Positions 3,018 through 63,799 of a stretch of DNA of 64,000 nt are shown here, one piece after another; the first letter of the stretch is position 1, and every line of letters begins with the position of its first letter. Made by a program: the position numbers and the translations under genes. The DNA comes from a virus. The stretch is taken from the UHGV virus genome UHGV-1493261. One strand, written 5' to 3'. Under the pieces are notes generated by a model. That model did not search any database. It had not been told where the DNA came from and worked only from the letters and a program-made list of their open reading frames with translations.

Positions 3018-5126
3018 ATGAACGAAATGTTCTCACAAGGTGGTAAGGGTTCAACTGGAATCCTAACCAATAAACAAGCAGTGGCTCGACACTTTGGGGT
3101 TAAACAATCAGAGGTTGTTTACTTCTCAGCGGGTGCTCTGCTTACTGGTTACAAAGTCATCTATGACAAAGTGTCACAGCGTGCTTATTCCTTACCTGCT
3201 GGCATTGGTTCAGGGGTTACTGCTGTAAGCCTTAGTCCTGCTGGGGTATTAGTTCACTCTGCTGGTAATGTAGACTTAGGTGCACTAGCTGTTGCTCGCG
3301 AAGAATACGTAACCCTACCTGGTTCATTTGATACCGGTGTAACAGTTAATGCTAAGAATGAACTGGTTGTTTTTACTGACGGTAAGTACCGATGGGATGG
3401 TGCGCTTCCTAAAGTCGTTTCTGCTGGGTCTACTCCTATATCAACTGGTGGTATTAGTCTTGGCGCATGGGTTAGCGTTGGTGTTGCGTCATTACTAGCA
3501 AGGCTAAAAAGCAATAGCGCTGGTGAGGGCGCCTCCCTTATTACCTTTGAAAATGGCAATTCTGTTGAGAGTCTTTCCGACAGTGATGGTACTAAAAGCA
3601 TAGGTAGTGGTGAGAGAAGTTTGCAGGAACGTAATAATGATATTAAGCATTCTGGGGATTTCCTTACCTTACAAGCTGCGATAGATGCATCGTTACCGAA
3701 AAATGACTTACTTATTTCCCCTGGTGAATATACTGAAAAAGTTACTATTGGTAACGCACAGTTAAAAGGCGTTGGTGGGGCTGTAGTACTAAAAACACCA
3801 GCAGACTTTACAAACACTGTTCAGGTTAATTCATCTATACCCCATTGGCAATTCCGCCATAGTGGTGGTTTTGCTATAGATGGTTCCGGGACAACCGGGA
3901 GCGTAGGCATTAGTTTTGACCCGTCAGACCAATATTCCGGACGTCATAATTTTAGTGATTTATACATCCACAACATCAACAAGGCCATTCAGAAGCCTTC
4001 CGGGAACATCGGTAATACATGGAGAAATATTGGGATATCTACGTGTGATTGGGGTTACTGGGCGCAGTCTGCTTCTGAGATGCACTTAGGCACCGATACC
4101 CTTCAGAACATGCACTTTGATGGCATTAGTACTTACTGCGTTTATATGAACGCTACAGTAGGTGCAGTGCCGGGTACATTCGGAGGTGGTGTAGGCGGTT
4201 GGTGGATTAAGGATAGTGTCATGGAAGCCTCTGGCGGCGGCGGCATCTATCTCAAGAACAAAGCCGGAGACTGTCCTTCTGCTCCGTGCGGTGTATCCAA
4301 TGTATGGATGGAAGCTATCGCTACTACCCCAGCTGTTAATGTAGATGGTGTAGCTCAGAAGCCTCGTGTGCTTAAGCTCATTGACACTAGCATCTTCTTT
4401 GCAGAGTACACGTATCTGAACAACGTAGAGCTTCAGAACTCCAACCTTGTTGCTTATGGATGTCGTGTAGATAACTCAGATGGCCACATGGATATCTCTG
4501 TAGATGCCAGCAGCAGCTTTGTGGCTGAGCAATTGTACCTGAACGGTAGTTCTGGCAAGGATGTAATGGTGCGCTCTGTAGCGGCTCAGACGGGTATGAT
4601 TGGGCAGGGCTGGACACCTAATATGAGTATGCGTGGTTACCTGCCGGAAGGATACATCTATCGAGTATCGGGTAATAAACTCGTAGCTAAACCATTCGAC
4701 AGCGGTACTGCTGTGTTCGGCGGTACGGCAAGCAGTTCTGGCAGCTTGCAGCCACAAGGCCAGTTATCCCAGAACTGCATGTATTTTGAATTCCAAGGTG
4801 CTGCTGAGTTTGAACTTACTGATGCAGCATGGCAGGTAACCTCCGGTAATTGGTACGTATGGGGCATTAGCACTGAGCTGGTTCAGGGAACTCCTGCGAG
4901 CTTCCGTATTGGTGGGGATATCGGTGTGGGTGAAGTCTTTACTAAGCAGGGTCAGTGGGTGAGTACCTTCGGTGTAGCTCAGGCAAGTGCTTCGGGTGCA
5001 GTGAACCTCAGACTAAGTACTGCTGCAGGTGGTGTAGTAATGCGCTTAGCGGACTACTTCGTTGCTGAGTTCACTACTCAGGCAGAGGCTATGCGCTTCG
5101 TGAACAGTAGGCGTGCTCTGCGTTAA
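3018..5126 (+). CDS. Tailspike protein 2
   Basis: 702-aa ORF with an AAGAGG Shine-Dalgarno; N-terminus MNEMFSQGGKGSTGILTNKQAVARHFGVKQSEVVYF resembles the conserved N-terminal anchor of Vi1-like tailspikes (from memory); Gly-rich beta-helix-like body. Confidence 0.8.
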   Translation: MNEMFSQGGKGSTGILTNKQAVARHFGVKQSEVVYFSAGALLTGYKVIYDKVSQRAYSLPAGIGSGVTAVSLSPAGVLVHSAGNVDLGALAVAREEYVTLPGSFDTGVTVNAKNELVVFTDGKYRWDGALPKVVSAGSTPISTGGISLGAWVSVGVASLLARLKSNSAGEGASLITFENGNSVESLSDSDGTKSIGSGERSLQERNNDIKHSGDFLTLQAAIDASLPKNDLLISPGEYTEKVTIGNAQLKGVGGAVVLKTPADFTNTVQVNSSIPHWQFRHSGGFAIDGSGTTGSVGISFDPSDQYSGRHNFSDLYIHNINKAIQKPSGNIGNTWRNIGISTCDWGYWAQSASEMHLGTDTLQNMHFDGISTYCVYMNATVGAVPGTFGGGVGGWWIKDSVMEASGGGGIYLKNKAGDCPSAPCGVSNVWMEAIATTPAVNVDGVAQKPRVLKLIDTSIFFAEYTYLNNVELQNSNLVAYGCRVDNSDGHMDISVDASSSFVAEQLYLNGSSGKDVMVRSVAAQTGMIGQGWTPNMSMRGYLPEGYIYRVSGNKLVAKPFDSGTAVFGGTASSSGSLQPQGQLSQNCMYFEFQGAAEFELTDAAWQVTSGNWYVWGISTELVQGTPASFRIGGDIGVGEVFTKQGQWVSTFGVAQASASGAVNLRLSTAAGGVVMRLADYFVAEFTTQAEAMRFVNSRRALR

Positions 5127-5734: not shown

Positions 5735-8700
5735 ATGCAAGAAATGAACCTCAACCGCCGCCCATATTGGGATGACTGGAATCCAGAGAAGCGCTTTTCG
5801 CGCATCCTATTCCGTCCGGCACCTATCAAAGTTCAGACGCGTGAACTGAACCAGATGCAGACCATCTTCCAGGATCAACTGGAGAAACTTGGCAACCATC
5901 TGTTCAAAGACGGTTCAATGGTTATCCCCGGCGGCCTGACGATCACCAACACTGCAGTTTCCATGAAGTTCACTCTGGCTGGTGGTAGTGAGTTCACTGA
6001 TCTGGAAGGTATCTCCGAACTCTATGTTCTGGGTAAGGACAACAATGCGAAAGCACGCGTCCTGTCTCTGGAACGTTACCCAGCTGAACCGGATACAATG
6101 TATGCCATCTTAGAGATGACTGAGAGTGGTAGTTCAGACGGTTTCGAAGCTGGCGACAACCTATACTTCAACACCTATGACGTGAACGATAACTTCATCC
6201 GTGTCGGCTATGGTGTGGCCGATACTGTTGGCGGTTCGATTGTCGCTCGCATGACAAAGGGTGTTTATTTCGTTCGTGGTATGTTCCTGGATGTTGAACC
6301 AACCACTTTGATCGTAGACAACGCATCGAACTCTACATCTCACCGCATTGGTTTCAAAGTTACAGAAACAATCGTGACTGAAGCAGAAGATGAAAGTCTG
6401 TTCTCCAATGCTCAGGGTACTCCGAACTCTAAAGCCCCTGGTGCGCATCGCCTGCGCGTCGACCTCGTGTTGTCTCGCTACGATTATGATGAAGAAGTGG
6501 CCGACTTCGTTGAACTGGCGAAGGTGAAAGATGGTCGTATTCAGTCTATGGTCGCCCAGTCAACGTACAACATCCTCGAAGACGCGATGGCTCAGCGCAC
6601 CTATGAGACCAATGGTGACTACAATGTCTCTACTCACCAGATCGACCTGCGTGAACATCTGAAAGAGAACAACAACGGCGGCGTTTACGCTCCGGCTGAA
6701 GGTGGTGATGAAAGCAAATTCGTGGCGGTTATGAAGCCAGGGATATCCTACGTTCGTGGTCGTCGTATCGAAAACCTCGGCGAAGAGCTGGTCACAATTG
6801 ACAAAGCCCGTGACACTGATACCCTGAACAACAACCCTGTGGCTGTTTCGACTGGTAACTATCTGGTGTCCAAGAACTCCAAAGGGGTTCCGGTTGTCTC
6901 CCGTACAATCCGCTACAAGTTCCTGAACGCATCCAGCGATGTACAGGCCACCGCCCTGCTGATTTCGGCAGAGCGCTCCGGTACTGAATTCCGTCTGTAT
7001 ATGCGCGACCTCGTTGTCACCGGGGACATGGGCACGGTGACCAAAGTCGCTTATGAAGAAAGCGGTACAACGATGTTCTCTTGCGAACTGGAGTCCAATC
7101 AGTTCAGTCAGAGTTCGGCGATTGACCTGATCTTCCCTCTTCCTGTATTCGGCGTGAAGACCCTAGCACCTACTGGCACCATCGACATCAACTACACCGT
7201 CCTGCGTTCTAACAAAATCACATTGAACGCGGCAGGCACAGGCTCTATCTCTGCTCCTCTGGGATACAGCTTCAGTCCTGAGTTTTCTTTGTACTCAGCA
7301 GCGAAGGCAGACGGCACCACCGCTCAGTTCGATATCTCTTCGGGGCTGTCCCTGGCTGGTACTCCGGTTGGTTCAGCACTACAGATTTCCCTGGGTGCGG
7401 GGTACGCCAACCAGTCTATCAACCTGTTGGCATTGATGGTCCGCACCACAGCGACGATCAAGACCAAGACTGTTACCGAAGTCACCGAGACTGTGACGTT
7501 TACTGTGGCAGCCAGCGTACAACTTGGGAACCACGACGGATACAAGCTGGTCAGCGTGAAGAACGCAAATGGTGCTGACGTCACCTCGAACTTCACTCTG
7601 GACGGCGGTCAACGCGATGCGGCGTACTACCGTTCTAACCTCATATCGTCTACTGGAGCCATCTCAGGCGTGTTCACAGTGGTGTACCAGTACTTCGCTC
7701 ACAGCTCTGGTGATTTCTTCACAGCGGACTCCTATTCGTCCATCAACTACCCAGACATCCCGAACTATGTTTCATCCAGTTCTGGTACTGTGTATGGGTT
7801 GGCCGACAGTCTGGACTTCCGTCCCAAGATCACCAGCGGAGCGTCTGACACGGACATGGTTCGCCCGAACACCGCGATCATCCTAGATGCAGAGTACTAT
7901 CTGCCTCGTATTGATGCCGTGTATCTGGCAGACAACGGCGTGTTCAACGTTGCTCGCGGTGTGAGTTCCAACAACCTGGCTTCCCCTGCGATCCCAGACA
8001 ACGGCATGCGCCTGTATGAATTAATGATCCCACCATACACAGCCAACATTGACGACATCCAGATTCGCACTATCGACAACCGCCGCTACACGATGCGCGA
8101 TATCGGTAAACTGGAGACCCGTATCTCCAATGTCGAATATTACACCTCACTGTCTCAGCTGGAATCCTCGGCGATGGCGCAACAGGTGTTCGATCCAATT
8201 ACTGGCAACCCGCGCTTCAAGAACGGTATCGCAGCAGACCCGTTCAAAGACTTCCGTCTGATCGACGATTTGTCTGCAGACTGGGTGGGTTCAATCGACA
8301 CTGACAATGGTCGCCTGCGTCCGTTTGTTCAGCAGAACGCGATTGACCTGACGCCAGTCGGTTGGAACAACGTTCAGGATGGTATGGTTGTATGCAACTA
8401 CACCCGTGAGATCTCTGTCCGCCAGGACTATGCAACCACGACCATCAACGTGAACCCGTATGCGGTGTTCAACTGGGAAGGTTTCCTGAAACTGAACCCG
8501 ACTACTGATTACTGGTTTGAGAACTACTATGTTACTCCACGTGTGATCAACGAAACGATCAACACCCGTGGTGCGATCAAAGAAGGTTCTGTGTACGGCA
8601 CATGGCGTACTGTGTCCGTGTCTGAGCGTGTGTGGGAACCGCATGGTGCGGGTGGTGTATGGTGGGGCTACCGCTACCGCACGACTGTGTCCACCCGTGA

Positions 8701-10622: not shown

Positions 10623-10871
10623 ATGCGTGGTGTAAAAGTACAAGGGCATGCATCGATGATGAGAAGTAGCTCTTGCCCTGGGGCTATCATCTGCACAGAC
10701 AATGCTGCCGGTTTGGCAGCACTGAACGCTCGTCGAAATCAGGAAGAAAAGGACAGAACTATTGCAGCGCAGGCAGCGCAAATAGATCAACTGACAGCGA
10801 TGGTACAACTCATGGCAGAACACCTCGGGATTGAACTCCCGTCAGGAGGCCAAGATGGCAACCCAAACTGA
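10623..10871 (+). CDS. Hypothetical small protein
   Basis: ATG with AGAGGA Shine-Dalgarno; 82 aa. Confidence 0.45.
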   Translation: MRGVKVQGHASMMRSSSCPGAIICTDNAAGLAALNARRNQEEKDRTIAAQAAQIDQLTAMVQLMAEHLGIELPSGGQDGNPN

Positions 10872-11193
10872 CACTGTGATCGATGTGAAAGCGATCCTCA
10901 CCGGGGTGCTGACGGCGACGATAGTCTCTGTTGGCTCGGTTGTTTGGATGATGGGTAAATTTGAGAATCGCCTTGATGTGGTTGAGCGTGACTCCAACAA
11001 GGTCGACCTAATCCTCACCAAGGTGAACGATATGAATGAGAAGATTGCTGTGTTAAACACAGACGTTAACTACGTCAAGCAGAACGTTGCTGAGTTGAAA
11101 CTCAATAGTAACAGTCTATCCGACGACGTTCGCACTTTACGTATCACCGTCGCTGATATCCAGAGCAACAAGGGGAATGGCAATGGCCGTTAA
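10855..11193 (+). CDS. Membrane-anchored coiled-coil protein
   Basis: ATG at 10855 (internal Met of track ORF 10831) with AGGAGG Shine-Dalgarno; N-terminal hydrophobic helix then heptad-like region. Confidence 0.5.
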   Translation: MATQTDTVIDVKAILTGVLTATIVSVGSVVWMMGKFENRLDVVERDSNKVDLILTKVNDMNEKIAVLNTDVNYVKQNVAELKLNSNSLSDDVRTLRITVADIQSNKGNGNGR

Positions 11194-18478: not shown

Positions 18479-18502
18479 CCCAGATTATTTTATTGAATTA
18501 CT

Positions 18503-18529
18503 TTACTTCTTCAATAACTCACGTATAAT
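18503..18529 (+). promoter_or_regulatory. Sigma70-like early promoter candidate
   Basis: TTTACT -35, 15-nt spacer, TATAAT -10; the -10 context TATAATTCTAAA recurs at 26705. Confidence 0.4.
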
Positions 18530-30631: not shown

Positions 30632-30802
30632 ATGTTTGTCGTCATCAATCTGTTCTGCTATATCTTCACGGCATACTTCTTGGGCGCGGTAGGGATCGAG
30701 ACCTACAATGACCTGAAGGATGGGGAATACGCCAACCGAATGGTTTATGTCAAGAAGTTTGTTCGTAAGTTCTGGTCCAACTTCGTATACAAACTACCAT
30801 GA
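30632..30802 (+). CDS. Small membrane protein (56 aa)
   Basis: ATG with GGAGAT Shine-Dalgarno; MFVVINLFCYIFTAYFLGAVGI hydrophobic helix; not in the ORF track (under 60 aa). Confidence 0.4.
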   Translation: MFVVINLFCYIFTAYFLGAVGIETYNDLKDGEYANRMVYVKKFVRKFWSNFVYKLP

Positions 30803-34034: not shown

Positions 34035-35543
34035 ATGGCAGACATTCAGATTGTTAAGGTTAACGAAGTCCGCATGCGTTGCATCGCAGATCTTTCTATC
34101 AGGGAAGAACTTAATGACTACTTCAAATTCGAAGACCCGAACTTCGTTCCCAACCCCTTCTCTAAATGGGACGGGGTTGTCCGCCTATTTACCAAGTCAT
34201 CTGGTCTAATCGATATCGGTCTGCTGTTTGAGGTATTTAAGTTCTGTAAGAACAACGGATACACCATTGAACTGGATCCGGCACTGAAGTACATTCAGGA
34301 CATCCCAGATGAAGAAATCCGTGACTTCATCGACAGTCTGCATCCAAAGATCCGCACCGAAAATCACGAATATATCGATGCCGAGACTCGTGACTACCAG
34401 TACGACACCATTGCCAAGGCTATGCGTCAAACCAGATGCGTCTGTGAACTGGCTACGAGTGCCGGTAAGTCCTTTATTCTGTATGTCATGGCGCGGTACT
34501 ACAGGCGGCGCAGAGAAGCTCTCGAAAGTCCTCTGAAGACGCTTATCGTGGTGCCGTCAATCCACCTAGTCACTCAGCTGTACGACAACTTCGAAGAGTA
34601 TGCGCATGGCAGTGATTGGAAGCCCGTTGTTAACACCCAGCTGATTTTTGAGGGCGCGACAAAGGATATCAGCAAACCAATCGTCATCAGTACATGGCAA
34701 GGCATTCAAGACCAGCCGAAGGAATGGTTCCACCAGTTCGGTGATATCGTGGTGGACGAAGTGCACACCTCCAAGTCTGAGAAACTGTCTTACATCCTAA
34801 ACAACTGCATCTATGCCGACCAGCGCCTGGGGGTTACAGGTACGCTGGCGAACACCAAAGTTGCCGGGCTTCAGGTGGTGGCTCACTTCGGGGCGTACCA
34901 TAAGATCATCACGGCTCGCGACCTTATCAATCTCGGGTACGCCACTGACATCAAAGTGAAGATGATTCAGCTGAAGCACACTCCGGCGGATGCCGTTGGT
35001 CTGGACGGGGATTATTCCAAGGAAATAGAATACCTTATTACACACCAGTCCCGCAACGAACTGATCGCAAAGATGGCGCTGAATCTGAAAGGAAACGTGG
35101 CCATCATGTTCGAGCGTATTGATGGCCACATGATGGTCGTGTATGATATGCTGAGCGCAGTCAAGCCCAACGTGTTTGTCATCAACGGGGAAGTGAAGAT
35201 CGAAGACCGCCGCCACATACAGAAAGCGATGGAGGACGGAGAGGACATCACCCTGTTAGCATCATACGGAACAATGCAGCAGGGTGTGTCAATCAATAAG
35301 CTGCACCACCTTGTACTGGCACACCCGAGCAAGTCATATATCCGCGTCATACAGACATTGGGTCGTCTGATGCGTCAGCACTCCTCTAAGGACGTTGCGT
35401 GGATATGGGACTTAGTTGATGATGCATCGTATAACGCCAGCACGAACCACGCTCTTAGGCACTCTCATGAGCGTTACAAGTTTTACCTGGCAGAGCGCCA
35501 CCCTGTGGAGTTCATGAAGGTGGCGCTGGGTAATCACGATTAA
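34035..35543 (+). CDS. uvsW: UvsW-like SF2 DNA helicase
   Basis: 502 aa; TSAGKSF Walker A, VVDEVH box, LHHLVLAH, QTLGRLMRQH and WDLVDDA align closely with remembered T4 UvsW. Confidence 0.9.
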   Translation: MADIQIVKVNEVRMRCIADLSIREELNDYFKFEDPNFVPNPFSKWDGVVRLFTKSSGLIDIGLLFEVFKFCKNNGYTIELDPALKYIQDIPDEEIRDFIDSLHPKIRTENHEYIDAETRDYQYDTIAKAMRQTRCVCELATSAGKSFILYVMARYYRRRREALESPLKTLIVVPSIHLVTQLYDNFEEYAHGSDWKPVVNTQLIFEGATKDISKPIVISTWQGIQDQPKEWFHQFGDIVVDEVHTSKSEKLSYILNNCIYADQRLGVTGTLANTKVAGLQVVAHFGAYHKIITARDLINLGYATDIKVKMIQLKHTPADAVGLDGDYSKEIEYLITHQSRNELIAKMALNLKGNVAIMFERIDGHMMVVYDMLSAVKPNVFVINGEVKIEDRRHIQKAMEDGEDITLLASYGTMQQGVSINKLHHLVLAHPSKSYIRVIQTLGRLMRQHSSKDVAWIWDLVDDASYNASTNHALRHSHERYKFYLAERHPVEFMKVALGNHD

Positions 35544-35911
35544 TCTTGATTCACATAGGCGGGGGTGGCCTCGCCTTCATCAGATACTACGCCGAACAAT
35601 TTGTCCAGAGAAGCCAGACATTGTGAGTTCAGGTGTTCACTGATCGTATCCTTCAGCATTTGTTCACTACCCAATTTGAATGGCAGAACCTTCGCTTCGA
35701 TGCCGTTTTCAAACGTCACAACGCCGACATACAGACCAACTTTCAGGCCTGTCATCAAGCCAAGGGGGACAAATCGCGGTTCCGATGGTAAGTTCTTGTC
35801 TGACGCCAGCTGTGTCAGATAAACTGGGGTGCTTGTGACAAATTGCCCTGCGGTGAGGATGGCGTCTGGCTTACTGCATCCGACCGCATATAATCCTACG
35901 AACTGTTTCAT
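35540..35911 (-). CDS. Hypothetical protein (123 aa), possible lipoprotein
   Basis: ATG with GAGAG Shine-Dalgarno; N-terminus MKQFVGLYAVGC is lipobox-like; convergent 4-bp overlap with uvsW. Confidence 0.5.
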   Translation of the reverse strand: MKQFVGLYAVGCSKPDAILTAGQFVTSTPVYLTQLASDKNLPSEPRFVPLGLMTGLKVGLYVGVVTFENGIEAKVLPFKLGSEQMLKDTISEHLNSQCLASLDKLFGVVSDEGEATPAYVNQD

Positions 35912-46045: not shown

Positions 46046-46090
46046 AGTCCCATGTTGAAATAGTTGGGAAATATAACTCACGAGAGCCTG

Positions 46091-46267
46091 ATGACCGACA
46101 ACAAATTAAAACGCGCCGGACTTGATTGTCTTGACAATTCATTCCGCCCCAGTGATGTTCTGGTCGCCCAAATGGAAAACAACCGGGATTTCATTGAAAC
46201 TATGCTGGAGAACGCCGACGCGAACTCCAAACACTCCAAAGCCCAAAAAGGTCAAAACGATGATTGA
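46091..46267 (+). CDS. Small hypothetical protein (58 aa)
   Basis: ATG overlapping the vWA gene start. Confidence 0.35.
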   Translation: MTDNKLKRAGLDCLDNSFRPSDVLVAQMENNRDFIETMLENADANSKHSKAQKGQNDD

Positions 46268-48872: not shown

Positions 48873-48902
48873 GTTTACTTCCTCTAAGGAATGTCCTATT
48901 AT
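48873..48902 (+). promoter_or_regulatory. Sigma70-like early promoter candidate
   Basis: GTTTAC -35 (T4 early-like), 18-nt spacer, TATTAT -10. Confidence 0.45.
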
Positions 48903-49252: not shown

Positions 49253-49759
49253 ATGACCGATCAACAAATTCAAGATTTATTTTACCTCGTCCATGATAAG
49301 TCCCACATCATGCGCCCCGGTACTGTTTCCCCTGCCGTCCGTGATCTGGTGCAAGAATTGCGCGAACCACAGACGACCACACTTTATCGCGGGTTGCCTA
49401 AAGAGGACGTTGCGCGTTTAGAGATGATGTTTGAACGAGGCGACATGTTCCAGACATGGGATTCTTGCCTTAGCTTCAGTGAACTGAAGCATGTGGCCAA
49501 AAAATTTTCTAAATCGTACGGAACCCAAGCTGTTGCCCGCATTTGTTACAAACATCGAAACAGACTCCCGGAGGGGCTTAATGTCTATGGTTCTCTAGAA
49601 AAATTTGTGAACAAAGGCGATGAATCAGAAATGGATATGCTGGACTTGGCGTCCATGGAGAAAGAATGGATATTCTGCCAGCCTCGCGTCATACCAGTTT
49701 CAAGAAAAATGGCAACAGACGGGACGATGGTTTTTACCGTATCACTTGTTACTCTATAA
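49253..49759 (+). CDS. Hypothetical protein (168 aa), candidate mono-ADP-ribosyltransferase
   Basis: Possible R-S-E triad: YRG, SxS in WDSCLSFSE, ExE in MEKEWIF. Assignment is speculative. Confidence 0.5.
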   Translation: MTDQQIQDLFYLVHDKSHIMRPGTVSPAVRDLVQELREPQTTTLYRGLPKEDVARLEMMFERGDMFQTWDSCLSFSELKHVAKKFSKSYGTQAVARICYKHRNRLPEGLNVYGSLEKFVNKGDESEMDMLDLASMEKEWIFCQPRVIPVSRKMATDGTMVFTVSLVTL

Positions 49760-49796
49760 CCCACGGCGGGGTATGATTACCCCGCCCATTTGAAAC
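49755..49796 (+). promoter_or_regulatory. Cassette: TATAAC, hairpin GGCGGGGTATGATTACCCCGCC, CATTTGAAAC
   Basis: Near-identical repeat of the cassette at 49197. Confidence 0.45.
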
Positions 49797-49810: not shown

Positions 49811-50185
49811 ATGAAAAAGTTAATCCTCGCTGTTGCCCTGCTGGGCGCTTCCTTTGCTGCTGTTTCCGCTCCTCCTGTCATTACCGGGGTGTCTACCAAC
49901 GGTGTTTATGCTTTCAAGGCGTATGGTCAAGACCTCGTTCTGTATAAGAACGGGAAGATGATTGAGCGCTGCGTATCAGAAGACGTGAATCGTGGGATCG
50001 ACAATCAGGGTAGCCCATACGTCCTGGACATCTATGCCTGCTCCAACGGGACGAAGTCCTTTGGTGTCAAGACCTTTGGCAACGTCGCCGTCGGCGGCTG
50101 GGGCTTCATGATCGAAACCCGCAACCACCAACCGGTCAAGACCATGCAAGAAGAGTTCTTGATCTCTGTCGGGGGTACGTTATGA
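49811..50185 (+). CDS. Secreted small protein (Sec signal peptide)
   Basis: MKKLILAVALLGASFAAVSA then a mature domain with two Cys. Confidence 0.6.
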   Translation: MKKLILAVALLGASFAAVSAPPVITGVSTNGVYAFKAYGQDLVLYKNGKMIERCVSEDVNRGIDNQGSPYVLDIYACSNGTKSFGVKTFGNVAVGGWGFMIETRNHQPVKTMQEEFLISVGGTL

Positions 50186-50469
50186 CACCATCAGAGAGAA
50201 GTTCTATCAAGGAGATGATCAGAGACAAGGCGTGTGTTGGCCATACTCAGTCAGAGAACATCTTGCGCCTGATGGTAATAAAGAACGATATCGATAACAG
50301 CCGATTCCAAACAGCGTTGTATGGCATGCTGGAGTTTATATCGCGGTCATCTGATCTTGGCACGGTCCGATATCTTGATGATCTAACCAAGCTGTTGAAC
50401 ACGGGCGGGGAAACTTTCGACACCGCTCGTATCCTGATTGACGGTGGACCTGAAGAAGACGAGGTATAA
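50182..50469 (+). CDS. Hypothetical protein (95 aa)
   Basis: ATGA overlap with the upstream gene. Confidence 0.5.
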   Translation: MTPSERSSIKEMIRDKACVGHTQSENILRLMVIKNDIDNSRFQTALYGMLEFISRSSDLGTVRYLDDLTKLLNTGGETFDTARILIDGGPEEDEV

Positions 50470-50470
50470 T

Positions 50471-50629
50471 TTGGATAAAGAATTGGTTTGGGAAATTGTG
50501 AAGGGTGTCCTAGTGATAATTGCGGTGGTTTTCATCTTGGGTGGGAACTTCTTCTATTGGTTATTCCGATCCGACCAGAAACGTCGCGAACGCAAGGAGA
50601 AAGAGAGAAAGGATCGATGGATGCGCTAA
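50471..50629 (+). CDS. Tiny single-pass membrane protein (TTG start), tentative
   Basis: GAGGT Shine-Dalgarno 5 nt before TTG; VKGVLVIIAVVFILGGNFFYWLF helix then a basic tail. No ATG available. Confidence 0.25.
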   Translation: MDKELVWEIVKGVLVIIAVVFILGGNFFYWLFRSDQKRRERKEKERKDRWMR

Positions 50630-50661
50630 CTAAGGGATAACCCTATATCCCGAGGTGTGTC

Positions 50662-51111
50662 ATGTTCCTTACATCCTTTATTGACTGGTTGAACATCATT
50701 AACGGCCTGAGGATCCCTGTTGGGAACCTCGGGCTTTCTCGTTCTTCTATGCCGCAAATCGATGCCGACAAACAAGAAGATTTTCACAAATATCTTGAAG
50801 ACAACGGCGTGTCCATAGATGCTGCGCAAGTGCCCATCAAAATGCTTCGTCTTACCCAGAACGAAATCAACAAGATGAAGGTCTGGAAGATTATGAAGCA
50901 GATCAGAAATAAGAAACCTATGGGTCGAGTTTGGGTGTCTTCTGACAATTACGTTGTTGACGGTTCTCACCGATTTGTCGCTGCGTTGAACATGGACGGC
51001 AAACAGCGCATGAAGGTCTACAAAGTTGATTTACCAGCGATGGAATTTGTTAAACTCGCTAAACAGTTTCAGGGTGTGCGATACAGAACGGTCAGCGATA
51101 CCCGTTTCTGA
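50662..51111 (+). CDS. ParB/Srx-fold (ParB-like nuclease domain) protein
   Basis: VVDGSHRFVAAL matches the ParB N-terminal DGxHR motif; GAGGTG Shine-Dalgarno. Confidence 0.55.
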   Translation: MFLTSFIDWLNIINGLRIPVGNLGLSRSSMPQIDADKQEDFHKYLEDNGVSIDAAQVPIKMLRLTQNEINKMKVWKIMKQIRNKKPMGRVWVSSDNYVVDGSHRFVAALNMDGKQRMKVYKVDLPAMEFVKLAKQFQGVRYRTVSDTRF

Positions 51112-51190
51112 ATACGATAGTTTATTGAATCCCTTTACTCATCATGGTGAGCCGCCTATCATTTCATCCAATGAAATAAGGAGAATCACC

Positions 51191-51877
51191 ATGAAACGTT
51201 TAATCCTCGGGGTTGTGCTGGCTGGTCTGGCATTACCCGCCGCTGCCAAGCTGAACTCCACAGGTGATAAACTGTGGTCCGACCTTTCCTATTGTGCTGG
51301 GTTCTCCCAGGCGGTTGCTATCGACAAGTCTGGTTCCATAGAGAACTTCGCTGAACTCTGGAACACAGGCAACGTCTCCACCGCTGTCATCAATGCCGGA
51401 ATTGAGTTCAACCGTTACAAACAGGGAGCCTATAACCTCAAGGGCTACCTCAATGACGACGAATTTAACCGTGGAGGCATGGAGGCTGGCGATTTGATCA
51501 TGACTGGGCGTATGGGCACCCAAGGCCGAATGACCGTAAGACAGTGCCGTTCGCTCCCTTCTCCGGCATTACAGAAGGGTGTGCAGATAGGCCGCCGTCA
51601 CCTGAACCTCATCAACGATGGCAACCAGTGCATCAAAGTATTCGAATACAGCGCTACGCAGACCTCTGATCGCGTCCTGAAGAAGGAATGGCGCACTCGC
51701 GCTCTCGGTCTCAGAGCCTGGCTGGTTGAGAACGATTATTACTTTGAAGACAGGGTTCAGAACGGTCTGAAAGACCTGGCCACGAATCTGAGCGTGAACC
51801 TTGATGATCCTCGCATGTCGCGCGAACTCCAGCAGACTCGTGTTGACTGCGACAATATGATGAAGGAGAACGAGTGA
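51191..51877 (+). CDS. Secreted protein (228 aa, Sec signal peptide)
   Basis: MKRLILGVVLAGLALPAAA; AGGAG Shine-Dalgarno; internal ATG of track ORF 51026. Confidence 0.6.
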   Translation: MKRLILGVVLAGLALPAAAKLNSTGDKLWSDLSYCAGFSQAVAIDKSGSIENFAELWNTGNVSTAVINAGIEFNRYKQGAYNLKGYLNDDEFNRGGMEAGDLIMTGRMGTQGRMTVRQCRSLPSPALQKGVQIGRRHLNLINDGNQCIKVFEYSATQTSDRVLKKEWRTRALGLRAWLVENDYYFEDRVQNGLKDLATNLSVNLDDPRMSRELQQTRVDCDNMMKENE

Positions 51878-52203
51878 TGAAATGTAAAATCCTGCTCTTG
51901 TTGGTACTGATAGCCGGGTGTGTAAACGCCGCGCCACCGTCCAAACTGAACACATGTGTGGCATGGATGGAGACGTATCAGCAGTTCCACCCAGATGACA
52001 AAGATACATCTATCCTCTTGTCTGACTTCGAGGGAGAGCTGAAGCGCCTTGATCTGTTCAGTGTTGATCAGATAGAGAATGCGCTGGATCTTCCCATGAT
52101 GCTGACTGCGGCTGACAACAGTTCACAAACGAAGAAAGACCTGATGTATTGCCGGGGGATTGCCCAGGACTTTGTCGGATTTCAAAATAAAGTTTCGGGT
52201 TAA
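51877..52203 (+). CDS. Lipoprotein (108 aa)
   Basis: MKCKILLLLVLIAGC with lipobox LIAGC; GAAGGAGAA Shine-Dalgarno; several mature-domain Cys. Confidence 0.6.
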   Translation: MKCKILLLLVLIAGCVNAAPPSKLNTCVAWMETYQQFHPDDKDTSILLSDFEGELKRLDLFSVDQIENALDLPMMLTAADNSSQTKKDLMYCRGIAQDFVGFQNKVSG

Positions 52204-59993: not shown

Positions 59994-62330
59994 ATGACTC
60001 AGAGCACAGATATCTTGACCAAATTTGGTAATCTTTTGAAGGAAGCCGACGCCCCGGTCGAGGTTGAAGTCCCATTTGAAGTGCGTAACGTTGTTACACA
60101 CAAACTGACCTTCCGCAAAGGCCGCGCCAAGAACTTCCGCTCCATCGGCAATCAGTTCATGGAGATTGATTATCAGCGCAACCCGGCCACCCTTGTCACT
60201 TCTGATGACAACGGCGCGGGTAAATCCACTATGCTGGTATGGCTGCTGTTTTTCGTACTGTACAACGACACGTACAGTAAGAAGGAGAAGAAGGCAGGCC
60301 TGGTTAACTCACAAAGCCGCAAGGAATGTGTGGGTGAGGTGGAGTTTGCCTGCCGTGGTAGCGAATGGAAGGTTCGCCGTGGCATTAAACCTGACTTTGT
60401 TGAAGTCTACCAGATGGTGGACGGCAAGTGGTTGAAGATCGATAACGAAGCAGCCAAGGCCGACATGAACAAGTACATCGTGAACCTCATCGGTGTAGAC
60501 CAGAAGATGTTTGAGAACTCTCTGGTGCTGGGTAAAGAGAAGTTCATTCCGTTTACGGAGATGTACACTGCCGACCGTCGCGCCATGGTGGAGACAATTT
60601 GGGACTTGGGCTTCTTCAGCCTGATGAACGAAGATGTCAAGGCCGCCATCAAAAAGGCAAATGCAACGCTGGACTCCATATCTAACGAATGCGCACTGAA
60701 GGTTATTGACCACACCAACAAGAAGACGCAGCTTCAGCAGATCGAGCAATCCAACGCCCTGATCCAACAGCAGTCGGCCGATATCCTTGTACAGCAACAG
60801 GAAGCCCTGAATTCCCTGGATGCTGACATCGCTTCCCAGAACGAAGAGCGCACCCGCCTCACTGCGGTTGAGTTAGAAGCCACCCAGGAAATGAAGACGG
60901 TAGAAAACCGCCTGCATGATGAATCCATGGTGGAGATCGAGGCTGTCAAGAAAGACTTTGATACCAAGATCCAGGCGGTGAAGGACGCCGCGCAGGACAA
61001 GGCTGACGATTATGAGCGCATCGAAGTGTCTACTGCGGAGCATGATCTTCAGGTCTTGCGTGACCGCGCCTTTACAGTGGCCGAACGCAAGAACACCCTG
61101 CTGACCGAGCGCAACACAAACCTGGACGCTCTGAACGCTGCTATTCAGCGCCGCCAGCAGGGTGAGAACTTCCGCATCAAGTTCCAGACCGAAATGGATG
61201 GCCACCAGTCGGCCATCAAGCGCTTCCACGACATGGGGACTTGCCCAACATGTACCCAACTGGTGTCTGATGACACCAAGGCGCGGATTGAGAGTGAGTA
61301 CAATCCTCAGATCCAGGAACTACAGTCGAAGTTAGATCAACTGGACAAAGTTACCGCCGATATCAATGTCCTGATCGATGACCACAAAGCCCAGGACGAC
61401 AAGTTGGTTGCTGACATTGCTGTGTTGGATGCTGAACTGGATGCAATGCGCAAGCAGGCCGACGAAATCGTTGACAACATCAAGCAGCTGCGCCGTGATA
61501 TTCAAGGTTTTCATGATGCCGCCACGATTGAGTGTAATTCGCTGAACCGTGAATGCCAACAGAAGATCCTTGACATCCGTAAGGCACTGAACGTTCGTTT
61601 TGAAGACATCACTGCGTCACTACAACAAACGCGAGAGAATGCCGTCAGCGGGATTAAAGCCGTCGATGATAAGATCGCCGAGCTGAAAGCCCGTCGTGCT
61701 CCTCTCGTGGCGTCTATTGCCGATCTGGAGCGTAAACTGGCTGTACAGCCAACACCTACCACCGACCTAGAGAACTCTATCGCTGCGTTGGAGGGTGAAC
61801 TGGAGGATCTATACCAGCGCCGCGAGGATGCCGACCAGGAACTCCAGGACTTACAGCACCTGCTGTTCTTCTTGAAAGATGACCAGACCAAGGCGCGTAT
61901 CATCGCCCTGTATCTGCCATTCCTCAATAGCAAGATCAACGAGTATCTTGAAGCCCTCAACATGTTCTTGGACATCGTTGTTGACGATACCTTTGAGATC
62001 ACCATGAGCGCAGCAGGCCGCAAAGGACAGAGTATCTTCTCCCTGTCTACTGGTCAGCGCAGTCGTCTGAACCTGGCTGTGACATTAGCCCTGCGCGATG
62101 TGGCTAACCTCAAGGCGTCTGTACAATGTAACCTGTTCGTGCTGGACGAGATCCTTGAGAACATGAGCGAGCGCGGGGTGCAGGAATCGGTTGAGATGTT
62201 GAAGCATAAGTTCGGCGGGAACAACCTGTTTGTCATCAGCCAGCGTGAGCAGGAGTTCCAGGAATACTTCCAACACAATATTCGCTATGGCCTGCGCAAC
62301 GGCCTGACCGAAGTTATCAAGAAGGATTGA
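59994..62330 (+). CDS. gp46: Rad50/SbcC-like recombination ATPase (gp46-like)
   Basis: DDNGAGKST Walker A, long coiled coil with CPTC zinc hook, LSTGQRSRLNLA signature, LFVLDEIL Walker B. ATG at 59994 (track 59985). Confidence 0.85.
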   Translation: MTQSTDILTKFGNLLKEADAPVEVEVPFEVRNVVTHKLTFRKGRAKNFRSIGNQFMEIDYQRNPATLVTSDDNGAGKSTMLVWLLFFVLYNDTYSKKEKKAGLVNSQSRKECVGEVEFACRGSEWKVRRGIKPDFVEVYQMVDGKWLKIDNEAAKADMNKYIVNLIGVDQKMFENSLVLGKEKFIPFTEMYTADRRAMVETIWDLGFFSLMNEDVKAAIKKANATLDSISNECALKVIDHTNKKTQLQQIEQSNALIQQQSADILVQQQEALNSLDADIASQNEERTRLTAVELEATQEMKTVENRLHDESMVEIEAVKKDFDTKIQAVKDAAQDKADDYERIEVSTAEHDLQVLRDRAFTVAERKNTLLTERNTNLDALNAAIQRRQQGENFRIKFQTEMDGHQSAIKRFHDMGTCPTCTQLVSDDTKARIESEYNPQIQELQSKLDQLDKVTADINVLIDDHKAQDDKLVADIAVLDAELDAMRKQADEIVDNIKQLRRDIQGFHDAATIECNSLNRECQQKILDIRKALNVRFEDITASLQQTRENAVSGIKAVDDKIAELKARRAPLVASIADLERKLAVQPTPTTDLENSIAALEGELEDLYQRREDADQELQDLQHLLFFLKDDQTKARIIALYLPFLNSKINEYLEALNMFLDIVVDDTFEITMSAAGRKGQSIFSLSTGQRSRLNLAVTLALRDVANLKASVQCNLFVLDEILENMSERGVQESVEMLKHKFGGNNLFVISQREQEFQEYFQHNIRYGLRNGLTEVIKKD

Positions 62331-62332
62331 TC

Positions 62333-62497
62333 ATGAACTACGAACAAATTAAACTCGCAATCCTGGTCTTTGCATGCATCATTGACATCGTTGCGTTTTC
62401 TCGTGAAGTCGAAAGGAAAAACTACCTGAAAGCACTGGGGTATCTCGGGTTCTCTGTCTGGTTCTGTTATCTACTTGCAGGTCAAATCCTGAAATGA
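62333..62497 (+). CDS. Small membrane protein (54 aa)
   Basis: GAAGGA Shine-Dalgarno; hydrophobic helices; stop overlaps the next start; not in the ORF track. Confidence 0.4.
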   Translation: MNYEQIKLAILVFACIIDIVAFSREVERKNYLKALGYLGFSVWFCYLLAGQILK

Positions 62498-63184: not shown

Positions 63185-63799
63185 ATGACGATGACAACGT
63201 TGAAGGCCATGGCCTTGTCCGTGACCTTTACCATTGCCAGCGGGAATGTGCACGCTTCCCAAAATACAAGTCAATGTGGTTATAATTTCTCCGAGCAACA
63301 ACTTAATACGATGGCAACCGCCTATCACGTAGGCAAGACACAAGATCTTGGCTACACTCTGGCCGCCATATCTTGGCGAGAGAGCCGCGCTGGTGAAGAT
63401 GTAGTGTCAATGCGATACGGCCTCAAGGCGGCCAACATGGGAGCCTTTCAGAACAAGGTGAAGACAGTTGGTGATCGCGAAGGTTGTAAGAATCGCAAGT
63501 GCTATGCCAATGTCGCCATAAAGTTGCTGACCGACCAAGAATATGCCGCGCAAGCCGCCCTCGATGAGATGCAGTTCTGGCTGACCTATCACAATCAGAA
63601 TATCCGCAAATCCCTCTCCTCTTACAATGCTGGCTTCGCCCGTAATCCTGCATCGAACGCTTATGCTGCCGACGTCGTGAAGAAAGCTAAATATCTTCAG
63701 AAATGTGTGTCTTTCGAAGGCCGGACCATCTCCGAGGTAGATCCTCAGGTGATCGCCATGAACAAGCACACAATAGAGAAACTGAAGAGGACAAGATAA
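63185..63799 (+). CDS. Secreted lytic transglycosylase (SLT domain)
   Basis: Signal-peptide-like N-terminus; ISWRESRAG (catalytic ES), GAFQ and YNAGF match SLT-domain motifs. Confidence 0.7.
   Translation: MTMTTLKAMALSVTFTIASGNVHASQNTSQCGYNFSEQQLNTMATAYHVGKTQDLGYTLAAISWRESRAGEDVVSMRYGLKAANMGAFQNKVKTVGDREGCKNRKCYANVAIKLLTDQEYAAQAALDEMQFWLTYHNQNIRKSLSSYNAGFARNPASNAYAADVVKKAKYLQKCVSFEGRTISEVDPQVIAMNKHTIEKLKRTR

Follow-up and report, generated by a model that had tools for sequence, protein, structure and literature searches.

The two-component spanins of phages lambda (Rz/Rz1), P2 (LysB/LysC) and T4 (PseT.3/PseT.2) are encoded by adjacent genes on the same strand, of which the first specifies a protein with an N-terminal hydrophobic segment and the second a protein with a canonical lipobox, and the periplasmic parts of both products contain cysteines. 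T4 also encodes the holin T, a protein of 218 aa with a large periplasmic domain that carries cysteines, and RI, a small helical protein secreted to the periplasm (97 aa) whose gene lies apart from the other lysis genes. The Ackermannviridae (Kuttervirus, Agtrevirus, Limestonevirus and Taipeivirus) are widely used as biocontrol and therapy phages, and their lysis machinery is largely unidentified. One of them, CBA120, shows T4-like lysis inhibition, with no holin or antiholin reported (PMC3184105, published in 2011), and a 2018 spanin survey scored the family as spanin-less (PMC6139136). We examined a locus of this family in a 64,000-nucleotide stretch of the virus genome UHGV-1493261, referred to here as the window. 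We think it rather probable that two of its genes, for p228 and p108, which many records name spanins, specify a secreted, cysteine-containing periplasmic pair and not a membrane-fusing spanin, with p108 tethered by lipid only in the lineage of the window.

Escherichia phage AV101 (Ackermannviridae) is 98% identical to the window in this region, for which 274 phage records gave matches. AV101, Salmonella phages Marshall and Maynard and Shigella phage Ag3 have the same gene order with 90-98% identical DNA and do not differ substantively from the window; their records name the same proteins hypothetical protein, lipoprotein or i-/o-spanin. The features of the locus, with export and topology as predicted, are the following.

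49765..49786, + strand: GC-rich stem-loop read from the sequence (GGCGGGG, 8-nt loop, CCCCGCC)
49811..50185, + strand: p124, a 124-aa exported protein (open reading frame with a Sec-type signal)
50182..50469, + strand: p95, a 95-aa cytoplasmic protein (PHROG 4458, no function assigned there)
50471..50629, + strand: p52, a 52-aa bitopic membrane protein (TTG start, GAGG 6 nt upstream)
50662..51111, + strand: p149, a 149-aa ParB-N-terminal-like protein (PHROG 2859, with a weak match to the ParB-like PHROG 1033)
51125..51162, + strand: sigma70-type promoter-like element, TTGAATCCC-TTTACT-17 nt-TATCAT, before the p228 and p108 genes
51191..51877, + strand: p228, a 228-aa exported protein annotated elsewhere as "i-spanin" (AAGGAG upstream)
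51877..52203, + strand: p108, a 108-aa exported protein, elsewhere "o-spanin" or "Rz-like spanin" (PHROG 3843)

A preliminary description of this DNA had singled out four of these reading frames (starting at 49811, 50471, 51191 and 51877), and all four were found where it placed them, on the + strand. Judged by their conservation, p124, p52, p228 and p108 are real genes: they belong to PHROG families 5474, 14464, 4260 and 3843, respectively (E about 1e-22 to 1e-154), and more than 270 phage records annotate them. The N-termini that had been claimed for them, namely two Sec-type signals, a LIAG↓C lipobox and one bitopic membrane protein, were borne out by n-h-c anatomy and conservation patterns, the sequence-based prediction by which we judged signal classes. 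So was the view of an envelope-targeted, non-structural region of replication or early type, as the flanking genes encode clamp loader, RegA, HU, helicase and gp55; the p228/p108 pair sits among replication genes, approximately 20 kb from the endolysin gene. The stem-loop lies directly 3' of the stop codon that ends a 168-aa Alt-like gene. It may be a terminator or an RNA-stability element separating transcription units, with a weak T-tail; our terminator scan did not call it because its T run is shorter than 5. In the Sajous1 tables, spanin-labelled genes appear as genome features and, in the table fragments covered, apparently not among the mass-spectrometry hits.

The four genes had also been presented as one cluster and as a concentration of signal peptides in the window. 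Four exported products in six consecutive genes is indeed what we find, but the excess is modest. A hydrophobicity scan of the approximately 70 window genes gave about eight or nine exported or membrane candidates, comprising those at 10831, 30632, 62327 and 63185 together with these four. The hypergeometric probability of four in six is approximately 1e-3, or about 0.07 when corrected for window position, and since p228 and p108 make up one operon the four genes are not independent; the clustering thus exceeds chance only modestly. The interval also contains two genes without export signals, those for p95 (50182-50469) and p149 (50662-51111). The notion of a single functional module had to be given up: in a census of 24 related loci (by BLAST for p52), p124 and p52 are accessory, being present in about half, whereas p228 and p108 are a family-wide pair with a putative promoter of their own. 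Profile-profile comparison of the three exported families revealed only signal-peptide resemblance and no paralogy.

The accessory genes may be treated briefly. We recognized Sec/SPase I signals by K or R in the n-region, an h-region of 7-15 residues and small residues at -3/-1, and the N-terminus of p124 (MKKLILAVALLGASFAAVSA↓PPVITG) has each of these (MKK / LILAVALLGASFA / AVSA↓PP). The n-h-c signal is conserved in alignment A3, where distant homologues have AxA↓D and the window has VSA↓PP; with Pro at +1 of the aligned site, the signal may be cut at SFA↓AV instead or not at all. The mature part of p124 is beta-rich with two invariant cysteines (C54 and C77). The protein belongs to PHROG 5474 (E = 9e-52), where no function is assigned, matched nothing in Pfam, NCBIfam or PDB, and was found in 12 of the 24 loci. 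The start codon of p95 overlaps the p124 stop (ATGA), which argues for translational coupling of the two. p95 lacks a hydrophobic segment, is not exported and occurs in 21 of the 24 loci. A secreted, beta-rich accessory p124 coupled to cytoplasmic p95 would be a second, independent unit of the interval, beside the p228/p108 pair.

A third would be p52, accessory as well, with a predicted N-out/C-in topology and a polybasic cytoplasmic tail. It has a 21-residue transmembrane domain (GVLVIIAVVFILGGNFFYWLF), an 11-residue N-terminus of net charge -1 and a C-tail in which basic residues outnumber acidic ones by 11 to 5; its start codon is ATG in one relative. It matches PHROG 14464, "membrane protein" (E = 7e-22), and BLAST found it in 11 of the 24 loci, the same slot being held elsewhere by other small transmembrane proteins with basic tails. 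We considered p52 as a holin and rejected it because it is accessory and matched holin models below threshold only: in Pfam, Phage_holin_2_4 scored 13.7 bits against a cut-off of 30, and a YajC-like match was likewise sub-threshold. The neighboring p149 is cytoplasmic, stands outside the exported set and was present in all 24 loci at 69-99% identity.

The N-terminus of p228 (MKRLILGVVLAGLALPAAA↓KLN) has the same Sec/SPase I anatomy (MKR / LILGVVLAGLAL / PAAA↓K), with a 12-residue h-region followed by P16-A17-x-A19 and then K20. Alignment A1 shows no variation at P16, A17 and A19, whereas A, S, T or H is found at position 18, as expected of the -3/-1 residues of an SPase I site; L002, a relative not included in that alignment, has Val at -3. 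The only distant homologues (P0068, P0069 and P0075) likewise begin with signal peptides of the classical kind, with sites reading AWS↓E, ASA↓A and ANA↓G, and we infer that the p228 signal is cleaved. Its helix-compatible apolar run extends over no more than 12 residues (11-13 in 30 of 32 homologues). The anchors of lambda Rz (20 residues) and P2 LysB (19) are longer and differ from this short segment with its P-A-x-A motif. Sequence prediction therefore gives p228 no stable N-terminal transmembrane anchor of type II, as an i-spanin would have. Four cysteines are invariant (C35, C119, C147 and C220) and the C-terminal half is helical; in MAM1-like phages the protein is reduced to a 125-aa N-terminal domain. 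p228 belongs to PHROG 4260 (E = 1e-154), to which no function is assigned, and a profile search of 1.84e9 representative proteins returned 11 matches only, all of Ackermannviridae type. The AF2 model was poor (pLDDT 38.6, from a 22-sequence alignment).

The p108 family is likewise restricted to Ackermannviridae. In the window the N-terminus reads MKCKILLLLVLIAG↓CVNAAP, so that a lipobox, L-I-A-G↓C15, closes the signal; it fits [LVI][ASTVI][GAS]C and has Val (V16) at +2; the p108 of the window lineage is accordingly predicted to be an outer-membrane lipoprotein. The Cys stands where relatives have a glycine codon, and the ancestral SPase I site (VNA↓AP) follows three residues downstream. This lipobox is a minority allele. 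Clustering at 90% identity placed the Cys in 6 of 37 p108 clusters (49 of 205 member sequences), the other 31 having (V/A)xA↓(A/T/V/E)P and no Cys. Only 6 of the 24 census loci have it, those at least 93% identical to the window, and at most 28 of the 274 phage records carry the Cys-type allele, which reads LIAGC in AV101, Marshall and Maynard and LMAGC in Ag3. CBA120, Vi01, PhaxI, ECML-4 and SJ2 have the Cys-less allele, and the lipobox is also absent from LIMEstone-type, Taipeivirus-like and MAM1-like phages and from the two most distant relatives; the distant relatives L021, L030 and L031 have no lipobox Cys. On our reading, it was in the window lineage only that the p108 signal was shortened and a Gly-to-Cys change created the lipobox. 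p108 would then probably be anchored in the outer membrane, at its inner leaflet, in the window lineage and be free in the periplasm in approximately 90% of relatives. The mature part forms a compact five-helix domain with two invariant cysteines (C27 and C92). This compact helical fold is predicted by an AF2 model (pLDDT 84.6, above 90 for residues 21-100) that gave no informative fold match, and residues 33-59 are almost invariant.

The two genes appear to be expressed together. The promoter-like element before p228 scored 9 of 12 consensus matches in our scan, and its -35 (TTTACT) and -10 (TAnnAT) hexamers are kept in Kuttervirus-, Agtrevirus- and Taipeivirus-like loci, with a diverging spacer. 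The pattern occurs three times on the + strand of the window, compared to 0.12 expected. By consensus and conservation, then, p228 and p108 have a conserved, putative sigma70-like promoter of their own. The T4 late promoter (TATAAATA) gave a single chance-level match in the window and none near the exported genes, and a literature search for Ackermannviridae transcriptomes found nothing relevant. The pair may be expressed at early or middle times. The p108 ATG overlaps the p228 TGA by one nucleotide (TGATG), and the arrangement is the same in all census loci. Because the two genes are strictly adjacent and coupled in all the relatives covered, we infer that the two proteins act together and may form a complex. 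They would thus constitute the core two-gene operon of the interval (51191-52203), with its own promoter and coupled by the stop/start overlap, and supply periplasmic effectors made by host RNA polymerase during infection.

Against this background the spanin annotation can be weighed. The Center for Phage Technology annotated the Marshall pair as i-/o-spanin, SpaninDB includes it under the separated type, and more than 100 of the listed GenBank/RefSeq records label the pair "Rz-like spanin" or "i-spanin", including genomes without the lipobox. The name "Rz-like spanin" given to PHROG 3843 is the p108 family's own name, propagated. The preliminary description had listed spanins among its options. 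That the pair is so annotated in Marshall and many RefSeq records agrees with it, but the lack of a stable inner-membrane anchor and of a conserved lipobox does not. If the pair were a genuine, non-canonical two-component spanin, p228 would stay uncleaved as an anchor, p108 would be its lipoprotein partner, and the two would bind each other across the periplasm and, as infection ends, fuse the membranes or disrupt them. There is a good deal that agrees with this. A gene with a hydrophobic N-terminus directly before a lipobox gene is the definition of "separated" spanins, and the adjacent, overlapping genes have a spanin-like arrangement. The window lipobox is canonical, with a non-Asp residue at +2 as in an o-spanin. 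It is also the only convincing one in AV101: a scan of every ORF of at least 25 aa, with any start codon and in all frames, found no other credible lipoprotein in the full genome and no lipobox ORF embedded in or overlapping p228. The pair has six periplasmic cysteines that could form disulfides (four in p228, two in mature p108), and such cysteines occur in 507 of 528 catalogued spanins, although the feature is not specific. Like the T4 spanins, the pair does not lie beside holin or endolysin genes, and the Ackermannviridae offer no other spanin candidate. Nor is the length of the hydrophobic segment decisive by itself, since some catalogued T4-like i-spanin candidates, as in Aeromonas phage 25, have hydrophobic cores of approximately 14 residues only. 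A signal-peptide-like N-terminus may also stay uncleaved, the precedent being T4 RI, in which it can be a signal-anchor-release (SAR) domain (cited in PMC3184105).

Nevertheless, we hold a spanin to be unlikely. The lipobox Cys is missing from the 31 clusters mentioned above and from all distant relatives, and overall from about 90% of orthologues, whereas conservation of the lipoprotein signal would be expected if anchoring were essential; and p228 combines its 12-residue h-region with the conserved P-A-x-A. The pair has no predicted coiled coil. The compact globular bundle of p108 also contrasts with proteins of the Rz1 type, which are short and Pro-rich. Within SpaninDB, Marshall is an extreme outlier: its 300 periplasmic residues are the largest number, it has 0 coiled coils, and 56% of its o-spanin is helical. 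The authors of that database themselves list CBA120, Vi01, PhaxI, ECML-4, SJ2, Ag3 and Maynard as spanin-less (Table 10 of PMC6139136). The Maynard pair equals that of Marshall in the relevant features, yet Marshall alone was scored as having spanins, while Maynard and nine other Ackermannviridae were not. Homology to a validated spanin was not found either, there being no Pfam or NCBIfam match at E ≤ 0.1-1. More broadly, searches of Pfam, NCBIfam and PDB with all the proteins of the locus and with distant homologues gave nothing above threshold and no spanin, holin or antiholin. Nor did the literature covered yield an experiment in which any Ackermannviridae pair was required for outer-membrane disruption or complemented lambda Rz-am Rz1-am. 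The widely copied annotation is probably wrong.

A resemblance to the T4 lysis-inhibition proteins has to be considered as well. p228 could be a type II membrane protein comparable to T, and p108 an antiholin comparable to RI, which would explain the lysis inhibition of CBA120. The sizes and topologies run parallel, p108 being helical and approximately 90 aa when mature, the phages are T4-related myoviruses, and lysis inhibition at high MOI is common to T4 and the Ackermannviridae, where it was seen in CBA120 without an identified holin or antiholin (PMC3184105). However, such a holin-antiholin unit is highly improbable. Neither protein resembles T (Pfam Phage_holin_T) or RI in sequence or fold, and no T-type holin target for p108 was identified; p228, which has no counterpart in T4 as a pairing partner, has three cytoplasmic residues only in addition to a cleavage motif, and in MAM1-like phages it is cut down to its N-terminal domain. 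A late promoter would also be expected for a holin.

The pair could instead act in superinfection exclusion by receptor masking, in the manner of T5 Llp or phi80 Cor, with p108 blocking the entry of further phage from the inner face of the outer membrane or through an outer-membrane protein, and p228 serving as chaperone or co-factor. As with Llp and the Cor proteins of phi80 and N15, p108 is a small phage protein with a probable host-type promoter and, in the window allele only, a lipoprotein predicted to be sorted to the outer membrane. The predicted periplasmic or outer-membrane location of both products suits such a role, the conserved surface stretch of p108 (residues 33-59) suggests a specific, conserved binding partner, and tethering to the outer membrane that is tolerated and not required fits a protein working near that membrane. 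But known receptor-masking proteins need the lipid anchor that most p108 homologues lack, p108 always occurs with a larger secreted partner, and no resemblance to Llp, Cor, Imm or Sp was seen in sequence or fold. Moreover, Ackermannviridae adsorb by tailspikes to O-antigen or capsule, and we know of no protein receptor established for them. We regard receptor masking as very unlikely.

A secreted periplasmic pair is therefore the reading we retain. p228 and p108 would most likely be exported by Sec and act together as soluble periplasmic proteins, with their cysteines probably disulfide-bonded. As to what they do, superinfection exclusion or lysis inhibition, functions named in the preliminary description, are possible, although neither sequence searches nor a fold search with p108 revealed a relationship to T4 Imm, Sp or RI, or indeed to any solved structure. 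With a weaker commitment than to the periplasmic location, we find most plausible a role in envelope or lysis-timing control in which superinfecting phage is sensed or excluded, of the T4 lysis-inhibition type, because Ackermannviridae show T4-like lysis inhibition and no holin, antiholin or spanin has been identified in them. A bolder proposal is that the pair is the missing device for lysis control or outer-membrane disruption of these "spanin-less" phages, operating through soluble periplasmic proteins and with no tether from inner to outer membrane. This is distinctly unlikely; if true, it would be a mechanism outside the holin, antiholin, spanin and disruptin classes, and the lipobox allele of the window would capture a soluble factor of the periplasm in the course of evolving a membrane tether.

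A finding of this kind is ordinary; its value lies in an annotation correction and in candidate lysis-control genes. A wrong spanin label would mean that genome reports claim more knowledge of lysis in these phages than exists, and that automated pipelines go on propagating the mistake. The pair also provides family-specific secreted proteins with a natural lipobox-plus/minus polymorphism, which bears on how the Ackermannviridae breach the outer membrane and time lysis.

Four open reading frames (ORFs) with the N-termini of exported proteins lie at 49811-52203, as the preliminary description had observed, and two genes for cytoplasmic proteins are interspersed among them. The predicted proteins are named here by their length in residues, with a slash marking the end of the signal:

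49765-49786, GC hairpin 5' of the p124 gene
49811-50185, p124, N-terminus MKKLILAVALLGASFAAVSA/PP
50182-50469, p95, cytoplasmic, intervening gene
50471-50629, p52, TTG start with GAGG Shine-Dalgarno, single 21-residue hydrophobic segment
50662-51111, p149, cytoplasmic and ParB-N-like, intervening gene
51191-51877, p228, N-terminus MKRLILGVVLAGLALPAAA/KLN
51877-52203, p108, N-terminus MKCKILLLLVLIAG/CVNAAP, canonical lipobox

Since p124, p52, p228 and p108 were each assigned to a PHROG family with very low E-values, they are real genes. Scanning the whole window for hydrophobicity gave about 8-9 membrane or exported candidates among about 70 genes, for which four in six consecutive genes has a hypergeometric p of approximately 1e-3. 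The concentration of signal peptides claimed earlier is real, though its excess over chance is modest (p of about 0.07 with window position allowed for), and two of the four genes belong to one operon. PHROGs give no function for the candidates found elsewhere:

10831-11193, 120-aa protein with one transmembrane domain, within the structural module
30632-30802 and 62327-62497, 56-aa proteins with a single transmembrane domain each
63185-63799, Vs.1-like secreted protein, PHROG 600

A 123-aa ORF of PHROG 4255 (35540-35911, - strand) starts MKQFVGLYAVGC; its lipobox-like motif is weak and atypical and its h-region very short, which makes a lipoprotein improbable. Large T4-related phages encode many small exported proteins, and the set described here is ordinary in kind, its genes being already in databases.

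Across 2.6 kb, the region shares 98% identity with Escherichia phage AV101 and matches 274 phage records, every one of Ackermannviridae type, spanning Kuttervirus, Agtrevirus, Limestonevirus and Klebsiella and Serratia relatives. Its neighbours are replication or early-type genes (sliding clamp, clamp loader, RegA, NAPRTase, a vWA protein, acyl carrier protein, HU, helicase, RNase H, gp55 and gp46). An endolysin-type gene lies about 20 kb away, adjoining phoH, an order likewise found in PMC10892097. Our comparison covered 24 related loci: Marshall, CECAV_050 and AV101, plus 21 from IMG/VR. The four exported genes are not one module: p149, p228 and p108 were present in all 24 loci, p95 in 21, p124 in 12 and p52 in 11. 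The p124 and p95 genes overlap by ATGA, and 1 nt separates the end of p95 from the start of p52. Just 5' of p124, a 168-aa protein (49253-49759) matches the C-terminal part of PHROG 832 (E = 6e-15), the Alt-like "RNA polymerase ADP-ribosylase"; this gene was found in only 7 of the 24 loci, which marks the stretch as a variable accessory-gene region.

p124 is an accessory secreted protein, beta-rich and with two invariant cysteines. Its aligned signal peptidase (SPase) site (AVSA/PP, 49811-49876) has proline at +1, which blocks SPase I, so processing may shift to SFA/AV or be inefficient, or the protein may be signal-anchored; distant homologues have AHA/D or AQA/D at the aligned site. The accessory protein p52 is bitopic in the membrane; its C-terminal tail holds 11 basic and 5 acidic residues, so that by the positive-inside rule it should be oriented N-out/C-in. 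We rejected p52 as the holin, since matches to holin models were sub-threshold only and its patchy distribution argues against this role. At loci without BLAST-detectable p52, the slot is often filled by another small basic-tailed membrane protein. In most relatives the gene after p95 encodes a small membrane protein that has a single pass and a polybasic tail (window 50182-50629; loci L014 and L019). Since this order holds even for membrane proteins without homology to p52, a conserved arrangement of two genes is suggested.

The remaining two proteins, p228 and p108, carry an existing label. The Center for Phage Technology annotation names Marshall_94 an i-spanin and Marshall_95 an o-spanin, PHROG 3843 is named "Rz-like spanin", and "Rz-like spanin" or "i-spanin" is repeated for many genomes in RefSeq and newer submissions. 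SpaninDataBase lists the Marshall pair as a "separated" system (Kongari et al. 2018, PMC6139136), the i-spanin with 35% helix and no predicted coiled coil and the o-spanin 56% helical; the combined periplasmic length of 300 residues is the maximum of its 528 systems. Table 10 of the same paper scores CBA120, PhaxI, ECML-4, Vi01, SFP10, SJ2, SJ3, Maynard, Ag3 and Dickeya RC-2014 as spanin-less. However, the Maynard pair (locus L028, 1748-2760) equals the Marshall pair (locus L001, 5379-6391) in every relevant feature, including LIAGC, so that one survey scores Marshall as having a two-component spanin and Maynard as having none despite the same pair. GenBank calls the Maynard protein only a "conserved hypothetical lipoprotein". 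Therefore, the Marshall call is a judgement from gene architecture, not from experiment or homology.

Under comparative test, the spanin label fails on two defining features of the predicted topology. The first is the membrane anchor of p228. In an alignment of 22 homologues (77-96% identity), P16, A17 and A19 are invariant and residue 18 is A, S, T or H, as expected for an SPase I -3/-1 site that follows a helix breaker. A relative outside the alignment (L002) has valine at -3. For 30 of the 32 family members, the longest apolar stretch measures 11-13 residues, against 20 for lambda Rz and 19 for P2 LysB (sequences from Table S1 of PMC6139136); in some T4-like i-spanin candidates of the catalogue the core spans only about 14 residues. 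A profile search run exhaustively against 1.84 billion representative proteins returned only 11 matches. Two distant full-length relatives and a short form of 126 aa have classical signal peptides (AWS/E, ASA/A and ANA/G); all four cysteines are kept in the full-length relatives and two in the short form. A comparable N-terminus in T4 RI can act as an uncleaved signal-anchor-release (SAR) domain (cited in PMC3184105). Whether cleaved or SAR-type, p228 is predicted to be periplasmic and not stably anchored. In the MAM1-like loci L021 and L022 (3624-4004 / 4001-4306), the p228 homologue of only about 125 aa corresponds to the N-terminal domain, with two cysteines, and precedes a p108 homologue of 101 aa that lacks a lipobox; two genes further 3' in L021 (4622-4921), an unrelated ORF has a lipobox-like FLAS/C.

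The second feature is the lipid anchor of p108. Residue +2 governs lipoprotein sorting (the Asp+2 rule), and the window protein, with valine there, is predicted to go to the outer membrane. With the sequences clustered at 90% identity, only 6 of 37 clusters, holding 49 of the 205 members, show the lipobox. In the remaining 31 the signal lacks cysteine and ends (V/A)xA/(A/T/V/E)P, and a sequence with 92% identity to the window has LMAGS. Among the 24 loci, the Cys-type is confined to the six with at least 93% identity to the window, and it accounts for at most 28 of the 274 phage records. The allele of CBA120, Vi01, PhaxI, ECML-4 and SJ2 lacks the cysteine, as does a different one in more than 100 Salmonella Kuttervirus records; L021 and L022 have AQA/AG, and the most distant relatives have VLA/TP and ARA/DE. 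In relatives the cysteine position is Gly or Ser, and the signal peptide of the window protein is 4-5 residues shorter than theirs; the ancestral VNA/AP site persists in the window protein three residues downstream of the cysteine. Since the lipobox is not conserved, the function that the family has in common cannot be one that depends on the predicted lipid anchor in the outer membrane. p108 would have become lipid-tethered recently, in the window lineage only, so its function would tolerate an anchor without needing one. Residues 33-59 are near-invariant, which suggests contact with one specific partner.

A non-canonical spanin seems unlikely to us, and would apply mainly to the lipobox-bearing lineage. 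The gene architecture, the cysteines and a T4-like distance from other lysis genes are all spanin-compatible, and when every frame of the complete AV101 genome was searched for lipobox ORFs, embedded ones too, p108 was the sole convincing candidate; however, the short apolar run and SPase I-like site of p228, predicted to leave it no stable anchor, and the poor conservation of the p108 lipid anchor argue against this reading. A 38-aa annotated membrane protein of AV101 (46072-46188, - strand; MNLIEFVLKSFAFGLIAC-GMITAMLLIIALVIPF-KRKR) has a lipobox-like LIAC with a transmembrane segment immediately after, and is far too short for a unimolecular spanin. In a distant Ackermannviridae-like contig from a food metagenome (L030), the p228 and p108 homologues are followed directly on the 3' side by an SPFH/Band_7 lipoprotein (6237-7028, lipobox LLTG/C) with a 69-aa membrane protein before it; an SPFH lipoprotein is also reported among the virion-associated proteins of phage Sajous1 (PMC10892097).

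The pair is preceded by a promoter-like element whose -35 and -10 hexamers are conserved across genera while the spacer diverges. The motif TTTACT-N16-18-TAYNAT has three + strand matches in the window versus 0.12 expected:

18502-18529, + strand, motif copy
48874-48902, + strand, motif copy
51134-51162, + strand, motif copy and promoter-like element of the pair, TTTACT-17 nt-TATCAT

Hexamer conservation and motif recurrence suggest that the pair is transcribed by host sigma70 RNA polymerase. Two copies share an upstream extension, TTGAAT..CTTTACT (18493 and 51125), and the recurrent motif may represent a phage-specific early/middle promoter class. The early promoters of the Ackermannviridae are said not to have been identified.

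The earlier reading of the cluster as exclusion factors, lysis-inhibition components or spanins holds as regards envelope-targeted proteins, but its spanin option does not survive the two topological tests. Most likely, p228 and p108 are instead Ackermannviridae-specific, co-translated, Sec-exported periplasmic proteins with conserved cysteines, probably expressed from a host-type promoter and probably acting as a complex. T4 lysis inhibition relies on a small secreted periplasmic protein; p228 and p108 lack similarity to either RI or T of T4, and the likeness is one of analogy, not membership. At high MOI, CBA120 undergoes lysis inhibition of the T4 kind, and neither holin nor antiholin had been identified in it as of 2011 (PMC3184105). 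Our best guess, by analogy, is that the pair may serve envelope or lysis-timing control, or superinfection handling. The useful outcome is negative, in that a widely propagated "spanin" label is undermined, and p228/p108 can be put forward as a defined candidate in the so far unexplained lysis of Ackermannviridae hosts.
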